A stretch of 15,791 bases of DNA from a virus (Duplodnaviria > Heunggongvirae > Uroviricota > Caudoviricetes), in the IMG/VR virus record IMGVR_UViG_2737471840_000001, positions 1 to 15,791 of that record; one strand, given 5' to 3'. The notes under the pieces were generated by a model. That model saw nothing but the letters and a program-made list of their open reading frames with translations, was not told the origin of the DNA and ran no database searches. Shown one piece after another: positions 9,100 through 14,613 of this stretch. Every line of letters begins with the position of its first letter. Position 1 is the first letter of the stretch. Position numbers and translations under genes: made by a program.

Positions 9100-9396
9100 T
9101 CACTCCTGTTCACTGGCCTCTTTGGCCATCTTCAAATACTGTTCAGGGCAATGCGCCATAACGCGCTGAAACAGTTCCAGCGCCAGATTGCGTTGCCCCT
9201 CATTAAATGCCATTGCCATAGCGTCCATCGGTGAGATAGCGGAAAACACCCGGCCTTTCTCCAGCACAGACCAGACAACGCGACGCCCCTGTTCACTGCT
9301 CATGACAAAGCGAATGTCATCAATTTCACGCTGTGCCATGTCACGTTGCTTACGGGCGTTTTCTTCTTTCAGTTGATCATCTTCGTAATCTGTCAT
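9100..9396 (-). CDS. Hypothetical protein between portal and scaffold
   Basis: 98-aa ORF, ATG at 9396 overlapping the portal stop (ATGA). Acidic, helical-looking composition. Confidence 0.5.
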   Translation of the reverse strand: MTDYEDDQLKEENARKQRDMAQREIDDIRFVMSSEQGRRVVWSVLEKGRVFSAISPMDAMAMAFNEGQRNLALELFQRVMAHCPEQYLKMAKEASEQE

Positions 9397-11072
9397 TGTG
9401 ATTGCCCACCCTGACCACTAACTGCATTCGCCATAGCTGACAAAACACTCGGATCCGAAGTTTTAGCTTCGCTTAGCGTCTTGGCACCCTGTGCCGCCGC
9501 CATCCCCATCGCCATCATTTGTTGTTGCTGTTGTTGCTGTGCCCGTTGCTGGCGAGCCTGCTCAACCTGTTCCTGCGGAACAATGACGGTTGGAGACACT
9601 CCGGACATATCAGCGAATGCATCGATCGCCTGATCAACGTTGAGTTTGTCGAGAGCTTCTGGTTTCGCTTGCGCAAGTTGACCAATGAAGTTAACCGTGG
9701 ACGCCAGACTGGACAGGCCGATAGACTTCTGCGCCTGAGCCATGACAGAAATGTATTCGACCTTCAGGGGCATACCTTCCATCGCGTCAGGCGGTGGCGG
9801 CAGCATGTTTTTACGCACCATCATCGAGAAAGCGCGGTCAATGAGAGGATTAAGACATTCGTCGTTCAGACGCTCCAGAACCGGCCCCAACATCAGAAGT
9901 TTTTCTTCTTTCATTTCGATCACCGCTTCAACAGGCATCGAGCGGGTATTGATGTTCTGCAACATCATGAACAGATCGACAAAGTAGGCGCTGTTAATGA
10001 TTTGGCGGGTGTCCTGAATGTCTGCTACCAGATCTGCTGTACTGGGGTTAACCAGATAAGCAGGCCTGAAACCATCCTGACCAGTAATCTGATCGATATA
10101 CGTGATGTCGCCAGGAAGAAGGGAGGCGCGCTGATTCTTGAGGGAAGTCGGAGCAACCATCGGCGGATTGGTGGCTTTATCAATCAACTGCGACTTGCGC
10201 TTCTGGAGAAGCTGCAGTGCCTTAACAGGTCCAAGCGCCAGCATACCCGGGCATGATGATCCATAAACATCTTCGCCGTTAACTTCCCAGCGCGGAGCCA
10301 TAATTGGAAACTCATCGAATCCGGACTCACGCAACAACTTGTCGTTATCGCCACCAACCTCGTAATAAACCGATTTGAATGGCTTGTTCTTGCTATCCAG
10401 CTTCGATGTATCGCGGTCAATGTTCGGGTAAACCGAATGCATCACTTCAATCCACTTCTCGTAGGTGCCGCTTTCCCACATGCTTTTTACGGATTCGCTG
10501 ACGTTATTTAGCCCGAACTCCTGAACAAGCTGACGAACAGTCATAGAGAACTTGCGAAAACAGGTGTCCACACTGCCACGAGGTGAGTTAGCCAGGTAGT
10601 AACTGCCTATCGGGAATGGCATTGTGCGAATGATGTCCTCGTCATCCTCCAGCACTGCCATTGCACCAGTGCTGTATGTGCCGAGGCTTCCGTATAACTG
10701 CGGCAGAGACTGATAGAGATTCGACTTATTGAACATATCGTTCATGCGGTTCTGCACCGCCTCAAGCCACAACTTAACAGGGCCATAATCCATCATTTCA
10801 GGATCTGGCGTAGCCAGGCGAAACCACGGACGCGCGGGGCTTGTGATGCCTGACATCATGCCGCTGGCGAGAGTGCGCGCCGCCATAGTCCCGGTCGAAT
10901 CAATAATGCGTGTATTGCGTCGATCGTTACGGTTGACCTCTGAAGTCAGAAAGCGGGAACCACGCGGGTTGATGTAATCACTCAACTCGCGCCAGTGCGG
11001 CTCGAACGACTGACGCTCGCTTTCAAGTTGTGCGAACTGTTTGTTCAATCGCTCTTTAGTTGTTTCCGCCAT
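9393..11072 (-). CDS. Portal (head-to-tail connector) protein, T7 gp8-like
   Basis: 559-aa ORF immediately downstream of the terminase region. Gln/Ala/Met-rich C-terminal tail (QQRAQQQQQQQMMAMGMAAAQG...) resembles T7-type connectors as I recall them. ATG at 11072 with GGAG RBS. Confidence 0.75.
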   Translation of the reverse strand: MAETTKERLNKQFAQLESERQSFEPHWRELSDYINPRGSRFLTSEVNRNDRRNTRIIDSTGTMAARTLASGMMSGITSPARPWFRLATPDPEMMDYGPVKLWLEAVQNRMNDMFNKSNLYQSLPQLYGSLGTYSTGAMAVLEDDEDIIRTMPFPIGSYYLANSPRGSVDTCFRKFSMTVRQLVQEFGLNNVSESVKSMWESGTYEKWIEVMHSVYPNIDRDTSKLDSKNKPFKSVYYEVGGDNDKLLRESGFDEFPIMAPRWEVNGEDVYGSSCPGMLALGPVKALQLLQKRKSQLIDKATNPPMVAPTSLKNQRASLLPGDITYIDQITGQDGFRPAYLVNPSTADLVADIQDTRQIINSAYFVDLFMMLQNINTRSMPVEAVIEMKEEKLLMLGPVLERLNDECLNPLIDRAFSMMVRKNMLPPPPDAMEGMPLKVEYISVMAQAQKSIGLSSLASTVNFIGQLAQAKPEALDKLNVDQAIDAFADMSGVSPTVIVPQEQVEQARQQRAQQQQQQQMMAMGMAAAQGAKTLSEAKTSDPSVLSAMANAVSGQGGQSQ

Positions 11073-11086
11073 TTCAATGACTCCGG

Positions 11087-11293
11087 TTACTGACCAAGCA
11101 GCGTTTTACCGCTGGTATTAGCGGTTGATGTGTCGCCCTGAGAACCGGTAAGCAGCGTAGAACTACGACCAGCAGCAGCGCGACGGCGACGAGTTTCTTC
11201 GTCGCGGGCATCAACAACGGCGGCATCCTGCTCCTGTGGTGCTGCCTGAACTTCTGGTGTTGCAGGCACTGACGGTGAGCTACCCATGCACAT
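11087..11293 (-). CDS. Candidate small low-complexity protein upstream of portal
   Basis: 68-aa ORF, ATG at 11293, preceded by CGGAGTCATTGA, the same 12-nt RBS context found in front of the portal ATG. Composition is Ala/Arg/Thr/Ser-rich; coding status uncertain. Confidence 0.35.
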   Translation of the reverse strand: MCMGSSPSVPATPEVQAAPQEQDAAVVDARDEETRRRRAAAGRSSTLLTGSQGDTSTANTSGKTLLGQ

Positions 11294-11315: not shown

Positions 11316-11388
11316 AAATTATTACCAATTTAACCACATATGATTTATTTATCGTAGATAGTTGACATTTAACGCACAAATTATTACC
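11316..11388. repeat. Two copies of AAATTATTACC in the AT-rich intergenic region, flanking a TTGACA hexamer
   Basis: Exact 11-bp direct repeat at 11316-11326 and 11378-11388. TTGACA at 11363-11368. Inverted repeat TTACC-N5-GGTAA at 11384-11398. Confidence 0.6.
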
Positions 11389-11439
11389 TTTCAGGTAACC
11401 AAAGAGTTCATTCCGGTTACTAACCTGACTGGCTTGTCG

Positions 11440-11721
11440 TTAAATTGAACAGGTGGAGTGAGCTTTTATTTTGAGCAGTACGGCGTATGGCACATGCGCC
11501 GATAGCGGTCTGGATACGTTTAAGGGGCACCCTCCCTTGCTCGGGCAAACGAACCAGGTAGCCGGAATGTGCAAGTCGAGCGGTTTTATTCCGCGCACGG
11601 GGATTCACCATCCCGGCGATTCGGTGTGACGCCTCGGAAGAGACGAGGGTACAACGATGAGAGCATTTATGGAGCCGCGACAAAGTGTGGCGCACTTAAC
11701 AGGCTAAGTGCTCTCAGCGTT
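11440..11721 (+). ncRNA. Candidate structured non-coding RNA or long leader upstream of tRNA-Arg
   Basis: About 280 nt of GC-rich sequence with no credible ORF on either strand. Local hairpins: TTGC-tcgg-GCAA (11537-11548), GCGG-N7-CCGC (11580-11594), GGGAT-N5-ATCCC (11600-11614), CCTCG-N7-CGAGG (11632-11648). Boundaries and strand are not determined. Confidence 0.3.
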
Positions 11722-11798
11722 GTGGCATTAGCTCAGTTGGACAGAGCAACCGCCTTCTAAGCGGTTGGTCGCAGGTTCGAATCCTGCATGCCACGCCA
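11722..11798 (+). tRNA. tRNA-Arg (anticodon UCU), argU-like, with encoded CCA
   Basis: Hand-folded cloverleaf: acceptor GTGGCAT/ATGCCAC, D-arm GCTC-AGTTGGACA-GAGC, anticodon stem ACCGC/GCGGT with loop CTTCTAA, T-arm GCAGG-TTCGAAT-CCTGC, discriminator G, CCA. Body closely resembles enterobacterial argU from memory. Confidence 0.9.
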
Positions 11799-11841
11799 GA
11801 ATCACGCCTAAGGACCGTGATGCCAGAAGTTCCAGGTGCTT

Positions 11842-11884
11842 GGCGGTGATGGTTTCCCTTGAAGGACTATCACCGCCATTTTTA
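11842..11884 (+). terminator. Intrinsic terminator downstream of tRNA-Arg
   Basis: GGCGGTGAT (11842-11850) pairs with ATCACCGCC (11869-11877), internal CCTT/AAGG pairing, followed by a run of five T (11879-11883). Confidence 0.55.
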
Positions 11885-11962
11885 CAGCAGGACGCCATTG
11901 CGATGACTTCATGCTGTAAACCAGTACAGCCACGGAAGGCATAACTCATTGCTTCCAGTTCT

Positions 11963-11986
11963 CCCGGTTCGTCCGGGCATTTTTTT
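11963..11986 (+). terminator. Intrinsic terminator-like hairpin just upstream of the 110-aa ORF RBS
   Basis: CCCGG-TTCGT-CCGGG (11963-11977), then CA and seven T (11980-11986). No U-tract on the opposite strand. Confidence 0.5.
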
Positions 11987-11998
11987 AAGGTGAAAATC

Positions 11999-12331
11999 AT
12001 GAAAGAGAAGACTGCAGCTGAGCGCTATGCCGCAGCTATCAATGCCGCGATGGCGATTGTAAACCTGCGTGAAGAGATTAAAGATCTCCTTGCAATTATC
12101 CATAACAACCTGACATGTACAGAGTTGCTTGGCGGTCAGTACAACGGTGAGGCGGTGAAGGAGGCATTTAAAAATGCCGAGGTAGGAATAATTCCAGCAA
12201 ACTATGTCAAGGCTGAATGTGTGCTCCTAAAGGCACGAGTGAGTCTGCATGAAGATCCTGGTAATCTCGGTCGAACTGCAATGCGTTACGTGATAGACGA
12301 GTCGAATGCCAAACACAATCTACCGAAATAA
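11999..12331 (+). CDS. Orphan hypothetical protein (110 aa), moron-like, opposite to the morphogenesis operon
   Basis: ATG at 11999 with AAGGTG RBS 6 nt upstream (the track start at 11990 is GTG). Product MKEKTAAERYAAAINAAMAIVNLREEIKDLL... has no recognised motif. Uses rare ATA, CTA and CGA codons and looks lower in GC than neighbours. Bracketed by terminators. Confidence 0.6.
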   Translation: MKEKTAAERYAAAINAAMAIVNLREEIKDLLAIIHNNLTCTELLGGQYNGEAVKEAFKNAEVGIIPANYVKAECVLLKARVSLHEDPGNLGRTAMRYVIDESNAKHNLPK

Positions 12332-12334
12332 CAC

Positions 12335-12348
12335 CGTGACATGTCACA
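12335..12348. repeat. CGTGACATGTCACA, copy 1 (perfect 12-bp palindrome GTGACATGTCAC inside)
   Basis: Exact 14-bp match to 14600-14613. Lies 4 nt after the stop of the 110-aa ORF and before the terminator at 12352-12380. Confidence 0.8.
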
Positions 12349-12351
12349 AAC

Positions 12352-12380
12352 AGCCAGCCTATGAGCTGGCTTTGTTTTAT
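12352..12380 (+). terminator. Intrinsic terminator after the 110-aa ORF
   Basis: AGCCAGC (12352-12358) pairs with GCTGGCT (12365-12371), loop CTATGA, then TTGTTTTAT. The opposite strand has an A-tract before the hairpin, so it is unidirectional for plus-strand transcripts. Confidence 0.6.
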
Positions 12381-12421
12381 CCTCACCAGAGGATATCAAC
12401 GACATTATCCCCACCAGCGGA

Positions 12422-13897
12422 TTAAGCATAGGGATCGTAATCTGTGATGGCCTTGCCTTGCTGGTTCTGCTGACCGGGAATTCGCAGACGCTTCGACACA
12501 GGGAACGCAAACGTCAGCAGTAGCGCATCGCCTTTACCAGGAGAACGCCCAAGTCGCTCTTTGATATCTTCCTTCGGTTCGATAACGATTTTACCGTCCA
12601 CTCGAACTTTGTACTCTGCTGCCGACAGGTCGTCCGCTGTTTCCTGGTCATCCAGCATGCCGCCCAGCCTCAGCCATGTCTTGCATGAATTGAACATCTC
12701 CCCACGCTTGTTGAGCATCTGCGGGTCAGTAGACGCGCCACCGAACGGAACAAGTTGCCATGTACGACCCCATCCGTCACCGATTGACTTCAGACCGGTT
12801 CCGTAACCGAAGTCGATGAACACCGCGTCAGCCTGATACTGGTCTTCAAAGTCAGCGATACGCTTCGCCATAATCAGATCGTCGGTAGTCTTGTTGCCAG
12901 TCCACAGCACCTTACTGTGTAGCCCCTGCCGCAGGTATATCACCGCGTCATCAACGCCTGAATATGCCGGGTCAACACCGATTATCACCGGAGCATGCGC
13001 CACCTGCGCAGCGGTTACCACCCGTTTCATTGCCTCATCAGTAAGACCGGTAGGGATAAACTGCAATTCAGATGCATCAGGGAATATGCCGCGCACACGG
13101 ATTTTAACGAAGTCGCTGTCTTCCCCGTAGTCATCAACCCATTTCTGCAACTGCTGTTTGTTAGTGCCTTCCACCGTTCGGCTGTCAATCTGCGCAGTTT
13201 TCCAGCGGTGTTTATATTTGCGGAAACATTCACGGAATCGCCCGGTATTACGCGTCGGGTTTCCGAACGCCACCCAGATAATCTCAGTGTCTTCGTCCGT
13301 TAGCGCACCTTCGGCAACTTCCCACACCAGATCCGCAATGTTCGACGCTTCATCGAATACCACGATGATGCGTTTGCGCTCGTTGTGTAGTCCGGCGAAT
13401 GCCTCAGTGTTGTGCTCAGACCAGGGGATTGCGTCAGCTCGCCACCGCTTGTCGTGCCCAGGATCATTGCTGTACATCGCGGTAGCGGTACAGGTAAACC
13501 AGTCTTTCGTGATAGCAAGGTTCGACCACTTGATAATTTCCGGCCAGGTCTTCGTTCGTAGCTGGTTGTCGGTGTTGGCGGTCACCACGACCTTACAATC
13601 CTCGCAAGTGGACATGCCCCAGTTGATCAGCATTGAGATGAATGCGGATTTACCAATACCGTGACCAGAAGCACGTGCCAGCATAAGCGGCTGATATCGC
13701 GTCTCTGGATTCTGCAGGTGATCACGTATCTCTCGGAACGCATCGGCCTGCCACTGACGTGGACCGGTGGCATGTGCCAGTTCAGTACCCTCTTCCCCCC
13801 ACGGGAACGCATAGAGGGCATAGCCAAGCGGATCGTGAGTGAACCCTGCAATATCCTCGATTAACTGCTCTTCAGGAGATAACGCTGTATCTGTCAC
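12422..13897 (-). CDS. Terminase large subunit
   Basis: 491-aa ORF with a P-loop/Walker A motif (ASGHGIGKS) near the N-terminus and an acidic nuclease-type segment (VDPAYSGVDDAVIY) in the C-terminal half. GTG start at 13897 overlapping the terminase small stop (GTGA). Confidence 0.85.
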   Translation of the reverse strand: MTDTALSPEEQLIEDIAGFTHDPLGYALYAFPWGEEGTELAHATGPRQWQADAFREIRDHLQNPETRYQPLMLARASGHGIGKSAFISMLINWGMSTCEDCKVVVTANTDNQLRTKTWPEIIKWSNLAITKDWFTCTATAMYSNDPGHDKRWRADAIPWSEHNTEAFAGLHNERKRIIVVFDEASNIADLVWEVAEGALTDEDTEIIWVAFGNPTRNTGRFRECFRKYKHRWKTAQIDSRTVEGTNKQQLQKWVDDYGEDSDFVKIRVRGIFPDASELQFIPTGLTDEAMKRVVTAAQVAHAPVIIGVDPAYSGVDDAVIYLRQGLHSKVLWTGNKTTDDLIMAKRIADFEDQYQADAVFIDFGYGTGLKSIGDGWGRTWQLVPFGGASTDPQMLNKRGEMFNSCKTWLRLGGMLDDQETADDLSAAEYKVRVDGKIVIEPKEDIKERLGRSPGKGDALLLTFAFPVSKRLRIPGQQNQQGKAITDYDPYA

Positions 13898-14490
13898 TGA
13901 TTGCCATCCTGACGTTCTTTCAGTCTCTTCCTGGCTGCCGCTATGCGATCAGCAATTGTCACATTCACATTAACATCCAGGCGTTCTTTGAATGCGTTGA
14001 CGTCGACGTGCTTACCAATCAGTTCGAGGTTCTTCACCTTGTCAGGCCATTTAATTTTTTTGAGGATTGTCTCTATCGAATCCTCGTTCATGTTCATGAT
14101 GGTCGATGACAGATCAAAGCCACTAAGCGTAGTGCGCCAGATTTTCGGCCACTCGCGGATTGGCTTAAGACTCCCATCGTCGTTGAGGATATCAATCACG
14201 TCCATCTGGTCGATCTCCACCAGGCGCATGAGAACGTAATCAGCACTGACGCGCATTCGTTTGTTGCGCTCCTCCATCAACTCGGCAATCCGTTTTTGAA
14301 TGCGTTCATCACGCATCATGACACTGGCTTTAACTGCCGCTGTATTTGGGGAGAATCCTGCGTTAATCGCTGCCTGAGTCTGGTTTTCAGGCGTTTTGAT
14401 GTATGACTGGCAATAAGCCTCCTGCATTGCTGTTAGTGGCTTAAATTGCGTTGATTTGCGTTTATAGGTTTTAGGTTCAGCAGGCATCAT
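13894..14490 (-). CDS. Terminase small subunit (Terminase_2-like)
   Basis: Conserved N-terminal signature LTAMQEAYCQSYIKTPENQTQAAINAGFS fits the Terminase_2 family pattern as I recall it. Start moved from the track's 14568 to the internal ATG at 14490 (MMPAEPK...) because a terminator hairpin and tandem repeats occupy 14498-14561. Confidence 0.7.
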   Translation of the reverse strand: MMPAEPKTYKRKSTQFKPLTAMQEAYCQSYIKTPENQTQAAINAGFSPNTAAVKASVMMRDERIQKRIAELMEERNKRMRVSADYVLMRLVEIDQMDVIDILNDDGSLKPIREWPKIWRTTLSGFDLSSTIMNMNEDSIETILKKIKWPDKVKNLELIGKHVDVNAFKERLDVNVNVTIADRIAAARKRLKERQDGNQ

Positions 14491-14497
14491 AACCACC

Positions 14498-14529
14498 GTG
14501 GTAATAGTTACCGTTGTGGTAATAGTACC
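14498..14529. repeat. Tandem imperfect repeat GTGGTAATAGTTACC / GTGGTAATAGTACC, each internally palindromic
   Basis: Copies at 14498-14512 and 14516-14529, separated by GTT. Located between the terminator hairpin and the terminase small start. A possible extended -10 element (TGGTACTAT on the minus strand, plus coordinates 14522-14530) overlaps copy 2. Confidence 0.6.
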
Positions 14530-14530
14530 A

Positions 14531-14561
14531 TGCAAAATAAAGCCGCCATAGTTGGCGGCAG
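14531..14561 (-). terminator. Intrinsic terminator upstream of the terminase genes
   Basis: Minus strand reads CTGCCGCC-AACTAT-GGCGGC followed by TTTATTTTG; plus-strand stem at 14542-14547 and 14554-14559. Confidence 0.5.
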
Positions 14562-14599
14562 TATTCAAAACCCATCAAATTCATCATGCATAATCTACT

Positions 14600-14613
14600 C
14601 GTGACATGTCACA
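14600..14613. repeat. CGTGACATGTCACA, copy 2
   Basis: Exact 14-bp match to 12335-12348. Overlaps the stop codon of the 115-aa minus-strand ORF and lies just upstream, in the minus-strand sense, of the terminator at 14531-14561. Confidence 0.8.

Follow-up and report, generated by a model that had tools for sequence, protein, structure and literature searches.

The DNA analyzed here, referred to below as the window, is a stretch of 15,791 nt which belongs to an epsilon15/phiV10-like (Uetakevirus) temperate podophage or prophage. Within it, a short open reading frame (ORF) lies between a tRNA-Arg gene and the convergent gene for the large terminase (terL), in a region whose features are collected in Table 1. 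A preliminary description, made from the DNA letters alone, had given this ORF an ATG start with a good ribosome-binding site (RBS) and had placed it on the strand opposite its surroundings. Both statements agree with our analysis: ATG 11999 is preceded by AAGGTG at a distance of 6 nt, and all sizeable ORFs around it run on the minus strand, with the tRNA-Arg(TCT) gene alone sharing the plus strand. An ORF-finder listing begins the frame at GTG 11990; this start was ruled out, since every homologue starts at the same methionine that we assign. The neighboring terL was found by tblastn at 89–100% identity in 11 of 11 loci that carry the ORF. A further ORF, antisense to the tRNA and to hairpins T1 and T2 (11728–12000, minus strand), has a counterpart in phiV10 (PhiV10p04, a hypothetical protein), and we judged it to be probably spurious because the RefSeq prophage annotations omit it.

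Table 1. Features of the cargo slot and its surroundings in the window, in order of position
Feature	Position	Strand	Remarks
Portal gene	9393–11072	−	Annotation of near-identical RefSeq prophages
Small protein gene	11087–11293	−	Annotation of near-identical RefSeq prophages
Direct repeat AAATTATTACC	11316–11326, 11378–11388		2 copies versus 0.13 expected
Promoter-like site	11362–11390	+	Tentative; TTGACA (11362–11367), 17-nt spacer, weak −10 TACCTT; missed by consensus scan
Structured RNA-like element	11480–11663	+	~185 nt, nine helices; alignment of 21 diverse copies
tRNA-Arg (anticodon TCT)	11722–11798	+	ARAGORN; Rfam tRNA, 73 bits
Hairpin T1	11841–11883	+	3′ of the tRNA; 15-bp stem (11841–11878), then T5; −26.4 kcal/mol, z −5.6
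Hairpin T2	11963–11986	+	5-bp GC stem CCCGGTTCGTCCGGG (11963–11977), then T7; directly abuts the RBS
Shine-Dalgarno AAGGTG	11987–11992	+	6 nt 5′ of the ATG; identical in loci with other cargo genes
Cargo ORF, 110 aa	11999–12331, including stop	+	ATG 11999, TAA 12329–12331
Perfect 12-bp palindrome GTGACATGTCAC	12336–12347		Begins 4 nt past the stop; right slot boundary
Hairpin T3	12352–12380	+	AGCCAGCC..GGCTGGCT (12352–12371), then TTTGTTTTA; 20 nt past the stop
Large terminase (terL)	12422–13897	−	Right-hand slot anchor, convergent with the ORF; RefSeq/GenBank annotation of near-identical relatives
Small terminase (terS)	13894–14568	−	Annotation of near-identical RefSeq prophages

The ORF is a real gene under selection. 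A search of 5.8 billion proteins returned close homologues in 15 clusters (53–98% identity, all of ~110 aa), and a profile search of 1.84 billion representatives returned 43 clusters at E ≤1e-3 (clusters being defined at 50% identity), nearly all of them 100–116 aa long. Pairwise dN/dS was 0.09–0.12 among relatives with dS of 0.45–2.0. The preliminary description had called the product an orphan, a label that does not survive 15 close and 43 distant clusters of homologues: the gene is rare, not orphan. Close relatives were carried by 11 of 2.9 million IMG/VR contigs, and the family occurred in 1 of 185,579 species-representative genomes, that of Pseudocitrobacter faecalis; in 50,697 sequenced phage records, neither the ORF nor a distant member of its family (P0019) had a tblastn match. 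The distribution across related prophages, which had been put forward as a check, gave the same picture of rarity, with the flanks of the slot present in 506 of 5426 complete E. coli genomes and the ORF family in 2 of the 5426. One explanation for such a gene is that it is a functionless hitchhiker, kept merely because it fills the frame of the slot. Its rarity and the lack of any known domain would fit, but dN/dS of ~0.1 over dS up to ~2, conservation over the full length of the protein down to ~25% identity, two invariant residues (Y10 and E42) and a confidently predicted fold all stand against this explanation, and we consider it very improbable.

The place that the ORF occupies, with tRNA-Arg on one side and the convergent terL on the other, is a hypervariable cargo slot, and in most loci it holds a single gene. 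The flanks align at 95–98% identity to phiV10, to other Uetakevirus phages and to hundreds of E. coli prophages, in which the ORF itself remains unaligned. In four fetched loci with different annotated genes, one and the same RBS precedes the cargo, whose first nucleotide keeps its place, and the stop codon of the cargo is followed by CACCGTGACATGTCACAAAC, by T3 and, 91 nt on, by the terL stop. Whether the cargo is the ORF, a gene of 139 aa, an Acb4-family gene of 123 aa or a gene of 168 aa with a Tad2 domain, the flanks are identical as far as ATGAA and again from TAACACCGTGACATGTCAC. Across these loci, unrelated small genes replace one another precisely from the ATG through the stop codon, presumably through recombination within the conserved flanks. 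All 11 close relatives in IMG/VR, together with those from Klebsiella and from other metagenomes, occupy this same slot. The window and a prophage of E. coli BCE049 (locus L001) are identical over the 440 nt from 11963 to 12402, which comprise T2, the RBS, the ORF, the palindrome and T3. Outside this segment, the flanks differ by 1–4% or are replaced: in L001, another sequence takes the place of the left flank, the tRNA is missing and terL differs by ~4%. The pattern is consistent with a recent transfer of the cassette.

Klebsiella-type loci have tandem sets of two or three small genes in the slot (L010 4500–5330, L152, and L006 5388–5642), the contents being either genes of 76 aa and 63 aa plus a member of the ORF family or a member of the ORF family plus a gene of 84 aa. 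In L010 and L152, the ORF family member is the last gene of an array of two to three cargo genes. Because cargo can lie in tandem in these loci, the slot can grow into a small operon.

Atypical codon usage, as claimed in the preliminary description on the strength of the rare codons ATA, CTA and CGA, was borne out in part. These codons are indeed present, two of each, which amounts to 6 of 110 codons versus 60 of 3740 in the neighboring genes, a 3.5-fold enrichment (Fisher p = 0.011) of codons that were picked post hoc; on a wider set of rare codons, however, the bias is weak, and the ORF (64 per 1000) falls within the range of its neighbors (0–72 per 1000). The GC content of the ORF is 46.5% versus 50.8% for the window, and the median for cargo of the slot is 47.6%. 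The departure in codons and GC is real, modest and typical of the cargo in this slot. The 13 neighboring genes that were counted contain a total of eight AGA codons; the ORF contains neither AGA nor AGG, and the idea that tRNA-Arg(TCT) serves the ORF was rejected on that ground. Lambdoid "morons," reportedly a concept of Hendrix and Juhala, and accessory cargo in general are recognized by presence/absence exchange between core genes, a downstream terminator, a promoter just 5′ of the gene and a differing base composition. The ORF is exchanged in this manner, has a predicted terminator downstream and differs in base composition by a small amount; its nearest promoter candidate is the tentative site at 11362–11390.

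The preliminary description had also placed terminators on either side of the gene, and predicted hairpins do lie at both places, T2 directly before the RBS and T3 just past the stop. T2 looks like a terminator for the plus strand only, and neither T1 nor T2 has a T run on the minus strand. T1 is the strongest of the three hairpins and is kept in relatives. The stem of T2 shows compensatory changes in relatives (CCCGG/CCGGG, CCCAC/GTGGG, and GCCG/CGGC), and that of T3 covaries as well, with AGCCAGCC/GGCTGGCT in the window versus AGCCCGCC/GCGGGCT in relatives; such compensatory changes between loci speak for a functional role of the hairpins within the frame. T3, which lies where the cargo ORF and terL converge and is an annotated terminator in phiV10, may act in both directions because an A-tract lies 5′ of its stem. 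From the comparison of loci, T2, T3, the RBS and even the start and stop context all belong to the conserved slot and not to the ORF. The same frame includes the palindrome GTGACATGTCAC, which follows the stop codon of nearly every cargo allele and suggests itself as a candidate protein-binding site.

Copies of the palindrome also occur elsewhere in the window. A second perfect copy lies at 14601–14612, ~35 nt upstream of terS, such that the pair brackets terS–terL, and a copy with one mismatch lies at 9333–9344. The layout with two copies 2.2–3.6 kb apart was found in most related loci despite sequence divergence of 20–30%.

Upstream of the slot, the plus strand carries several elements which could bear on how the cargo is expressed. 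In the structured RNA-like element, 10 base pairs are backed by compensatory changes versus 3.5 in shuffled alignments and 2–3 in slid controls, and pairing is kept at 97.9% on the plus strand versus 83.7% on the minus strand, with G-U pairs favoring the plus strand. The element (11480–11663) matched no Rfam family, it persists in relatives without the tRNA, and it may be a leader, an antitermination RNA or an sRNA. The loops TATGGCACATG, GGTAGCCGGAATGTGCAAG and TCACCATC are invariant among its copies. The tRNA-Arg gene is optional, being absent from L001, L006, L010 and L086, where the rest of the intergenic frame stays in place. The TTGACA site lies in an AT-rich stretch, 610 nt upstream of the ORF, and is conserved in E. 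coli and Klebsiella relatives. It is overlapped, as TTGACA-17-TACCTT, by the second copy of the direct repeat AAATTATTACC, and both the repeat and the site are conserved in the Klebsiella relatives. Together they may constitute an operator-controlled promoter of a plus-strand unit; a consensus scan found no sigma-70-like promoter between T1 and the RBS. Expression of the cargo through read-through or attenuation, as originally proposed, is plausible. We envisage a single plus-strand unit consisting of promoter, structured RNA, optional tRNA, T1, T2, cargo and T3, in which expression of the cargo would need RNA polymerase to read through T1 and T2, and in which the structured RNA might, as a guess, serve as a processive-antitermination element. 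The late minus-strand transcript of terS and terL would cross this region antisense on its way to the portal gene, which would disfavor expression of the cargo late in infection.

We surveyed what else occupies the slot by scanning for its left flank in IMG/VR, which yielded 120 loci, and by extracting and clustering the first ORF past the flank. Acb4-like cargo was present in 63 loci, and 36 loci held a modular group whose members share one or more of three parts: the MKTIDMLAKY N-terminal domain, a C-terminal domain of 61 aa and a Tad2 domain. The ORF family was present in seven loci, only one of which came from the unbiased sample (the others were reached by targeted look-ups), and at least five further unannotated cargo families were present in 1–5 loci each. 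The ORF family has a share of about 1–2% of loci, in a slot with at least eight unrelated cargo families. The 123-aa cargo matched PF13876 at E 5.3e-34 and, weakly, PDB 9E4W (Acb4), and the 168-aa cargo matched PF11195 ("Thoeris anti-defense 2-like") at E 1.2e-23. PF13876 is the Acb4 family of sponges for CBASS cyclic nucleotides and PF11195 is the Tad2 family of Thoeris sponges; the two families are often fused, and both are experimentally established immune-signal sponges (bioRxiv 10.1101/2024.12.30.630793; bioRxiv 10.1101/2025.07.12.664507). In most phages of this group, the slot is accordingly, by the domain content of its cargo, a site for inhibitors of nucleotide-based immune signaling.

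Several of the cargo genes in the survey are composites. In L003, L005, L039, L061, L089 and L131, domains are shuffled, with a MKTIDMLAKYLNEWP N-terminal domain joined to Tad2 or to other C-terminal domains, and the 61-aa module (..HLYNMKLQCL..AINAGFD..) is found either on its own or joined to N-terminal parts of at least three different kinds. Apart from Tad2, the cargo modules had no Pfam match; for the 61-aa domain and the other cargo families, there was none at E ≤0.01 and no PDB sequence match, and a candidate identification of the 61-aa domain as Sequestin (PF21825) was rejected since no Pfam match reached that threshold. One locus with Acb4-like cargo (L065) has terminase and capsid regions that are only 80–82% identical to those of the window.

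The product of the ORF matched PHROG 27507 over its full length (E 3.5e-75, residues 1–110 on profile positions 1–110). This PHROG is the sole family match and is the ORF's own family; its annotated function is "unknown," and it brings no functional information. The preliminary description had recognized no motif in the product, and likewise searches of Pfam, NCBIfam, PADLOC and PDB sequence profiles found no relative for the ORF or for a 49-member profile of its family. PADLOC gave two isolated marginal matches among the 49 members and none for the ORF itself, and a string search of the literature by accession, peptide and PHROG identifier found nothing on the ORF. The family has a pI of about 6.5. 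Judged by eye, the hydrophobic stretches of the protein are too short to span a membrane, and because of this it is probably soluble and cytoplasmic.

Structure prediction had been among the proposed checks, and AlphaFold2 returned a confident model (pLDDT 95.4, pTM 0.79) from a deep alignment of 49 sequences; a model from a shallow alignment of 16 sequences (pLDDT 51) was discarded. The predicted fold consists of a long N-terminal helix (residues 6–37), two short helices (40–45 and 50–59), a three-stranded sheet (63–67, 71–76, and 79–82) and a C-terminal helix (92–102). Foldseek searches with this model found nothing at E ≤1 in PDB or BFVD, that is, no significant structural neighbor in either. 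Homology to a housekeeping phage protein, the finding that had been named as telling against an accessory role, was sought both by sequence profile and by structure and was not found. Among 38 distant members of the family, the conserved polar residues are Y10 (38/38), E42 (38/38), H84 (35/38), T39 (32/38), R9 (31/38) and K71 (24/38), a set which might well line a ligand pocket or make up a small active site.

We were mindful that residues 50–102 share their order of elements (alpha-beta-beta-beta-alpha) with the double-stranded RNA-binding domain (dsRBD) and that weak structural matches to dsRBDs recur. The protein could on these grounds be a nucleic-acid-binding or regulatory protein, whose C-terminal dsRBD-like module binds RNA or a partner and regulates expression. 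Yet every one of the structural matches is below significance, hhalign against the E. coli RNase III dsRBD gave a probability of 0.1, Pfam showed no dsRBD match, and the conserved residues depart from the dsRBD RNA-binding motifs. With no significant profile or structural match, membership in the dsRBD family was rejected, and we think a nucleic-acid-binding or regulatory role improbable.

The preliminary description had suggested that the gene belongs to a moron of the kind whose small proteins are often anti-defense or host-modulating factors. Position speaks for the anti-defense idea, given that sister phages carry Acb4 (PF13876) or Tad2 (PF11195) genes at the same place, but the support it receives is positional. 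By analogy with the other cargo, we put the chance that the ORF encodes a phage counter-defense protein, one that would protect the phage from the host immune system, at about even. The ORF belongs to no known anti-defense family and, if functional, would be a new one. Interception of a signal, either as a sponge or otherwise by binding or cleaving a nucleotide immune signal, would be the most probable mode because the same slot usually holds Acb4- or Tad2-type sponges; as a specific assignment it is tentative. Direct inhibition of a host defense protein would be the next most likely mode. Against the counter-defense reading, the majority of the slot's cargo families are uncharacterized, so that the slot may also take cargo other than anti-defense genes, no fusions of the ORF family to known sponge domains were seen, the family is rare, and a layout on the opposite strand bracketed by terminators is also classic for morons expressed in lysogens.

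That last point leads to the alternative that the gene benefits the lysogen, being expressed from the resident prophage for superinfection exclusion, defense against other phages or modulation of the host. The gene is indeed opposite in strand to the silent late genes, bracketed by terminators and lower in GC, a direct repeat, as a candidate operator, overlaps the putative promoter upstream of it, and the phage is temperate, with known prophage copies. Weighed against these points are the absence of any match to a PADLOC defense model, the fact that the known cargo of the slot is counter-defense and not defense, and the whereabouts of some distant members of the family, namely runs of small genes and a nin region. 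In lambdoid phages, small-gene strings and the nin region are expressed during lytic growth and not from the repressed prophage. Distant members are encoded immediately upstream of terS, in another podophage-like contig; in the nin region of a lambdoid phage, where ninF/ninG lie on one side and a DNA methyltransferase gene (Dam or N6/N4) directly precedes the family member; in runs of small genes; and at the head of a six-gene block on the opposite strand, set in the structural module of a phage that is unrelated and also encodes a tRNA-Arg(TCT). These sites hold accessory genes of phages and not core genes, which counts in favor of the counter-defense reading. On balance, a moron serving the lysogen seems to us unlikely.

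Returning to the counter-defense reading, it can be joined with the upstream elements into a fuller proposal, in which the ORF would represent a counter-defense family with a novel fold (a sponge or an enzyme built around Y10, E42 and H84) and would be expressed from a read-through cassette governed by the RNA at 11480–11663. The leader RNA, itself of a hitherto undescribed kind, would let RNA polymerase pass the two terminators, making the slot a plug-and-play cassette. We offer this combination as a speculative and rather unlikely possibility.

Comparison with known systems shows where the ORF stands relative to its sister cargo. Acb4 (PF13876, Phage_gp49_66; the SPO1 Acb4 of PDB 9E4W is a tetrameric CBASS sponge) shares with the ORF the same slot, exchanged from ATG to stop, in which it is the commonest cargo, and the Acb4-like cargo (112–144 aa) and the ORF (110 aa) are both small phage proteins. 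The two are nonetheless similar neither in sequence nor in fold, and the ORF matches neither the Pfam model nor the 9E4W fold. Tad2 (PF11195, formerly DUF2829), a sponge for gcADPR, occupies this slot too, by itself (98 aa) or with an N-terminal domain attached (168 aa); here too the ORF has no similarity in sequence or fold, and no domain fusion of any kind was seen in its family. Immune-signal sponges as a class are short proteins (<~100–120 aa), a trait that the ORF (110 aa) and its family (~100–116 aa) share. Members of the sponge class are homo-oligomers with pockets at the interfaces between protomers that are usually positively charged (Tal et al., bioRxiv 10.1101/2025.07.12.664507). 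The slot itself resembles the anti-defense hotspots (Silas et al., bioRxiv 10.1101/2023.04.06.535777) in being a hypervariable locus between core genes, and it has in common with hotspots and lambdoid morons a lower GC content, a terminator of its own, the opposite orientation and exchange between near-identical genomes. Unlike those, it has an unusually precise unit of exchange, one ORF from start to stop inside a fixed frame of RBS and terminators. We found no description of this slot in the literature that was searched.

If the ORF is anti-defense, it would add a family whose fold differs from that of every solved sponge or inhibitor and would hint at an immune pathway or signal of the host which temperate phages of enterobacteria must evade. 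Among the numerous candidates of this kind, the ORF has in its favor a clean positional argument, a confidently predicted model, obvious residues to mutate and sibling candidate families in its slot. The slot can serve as a handle for discovery, with its minimum of eight unrelated cargo families, two of them validated as sponges, and some six uncharacterized cargo families, the ORF's included, that can be cloned and screened together. Exchange from ATG to stop is also a clean natural case of modular gene swapping and could inform the design of payload sites in phages. Should the combined reading of counter-defense protein and read-through cassette be true, the slot as a whole would offer a ready collection of new anti-defense families.
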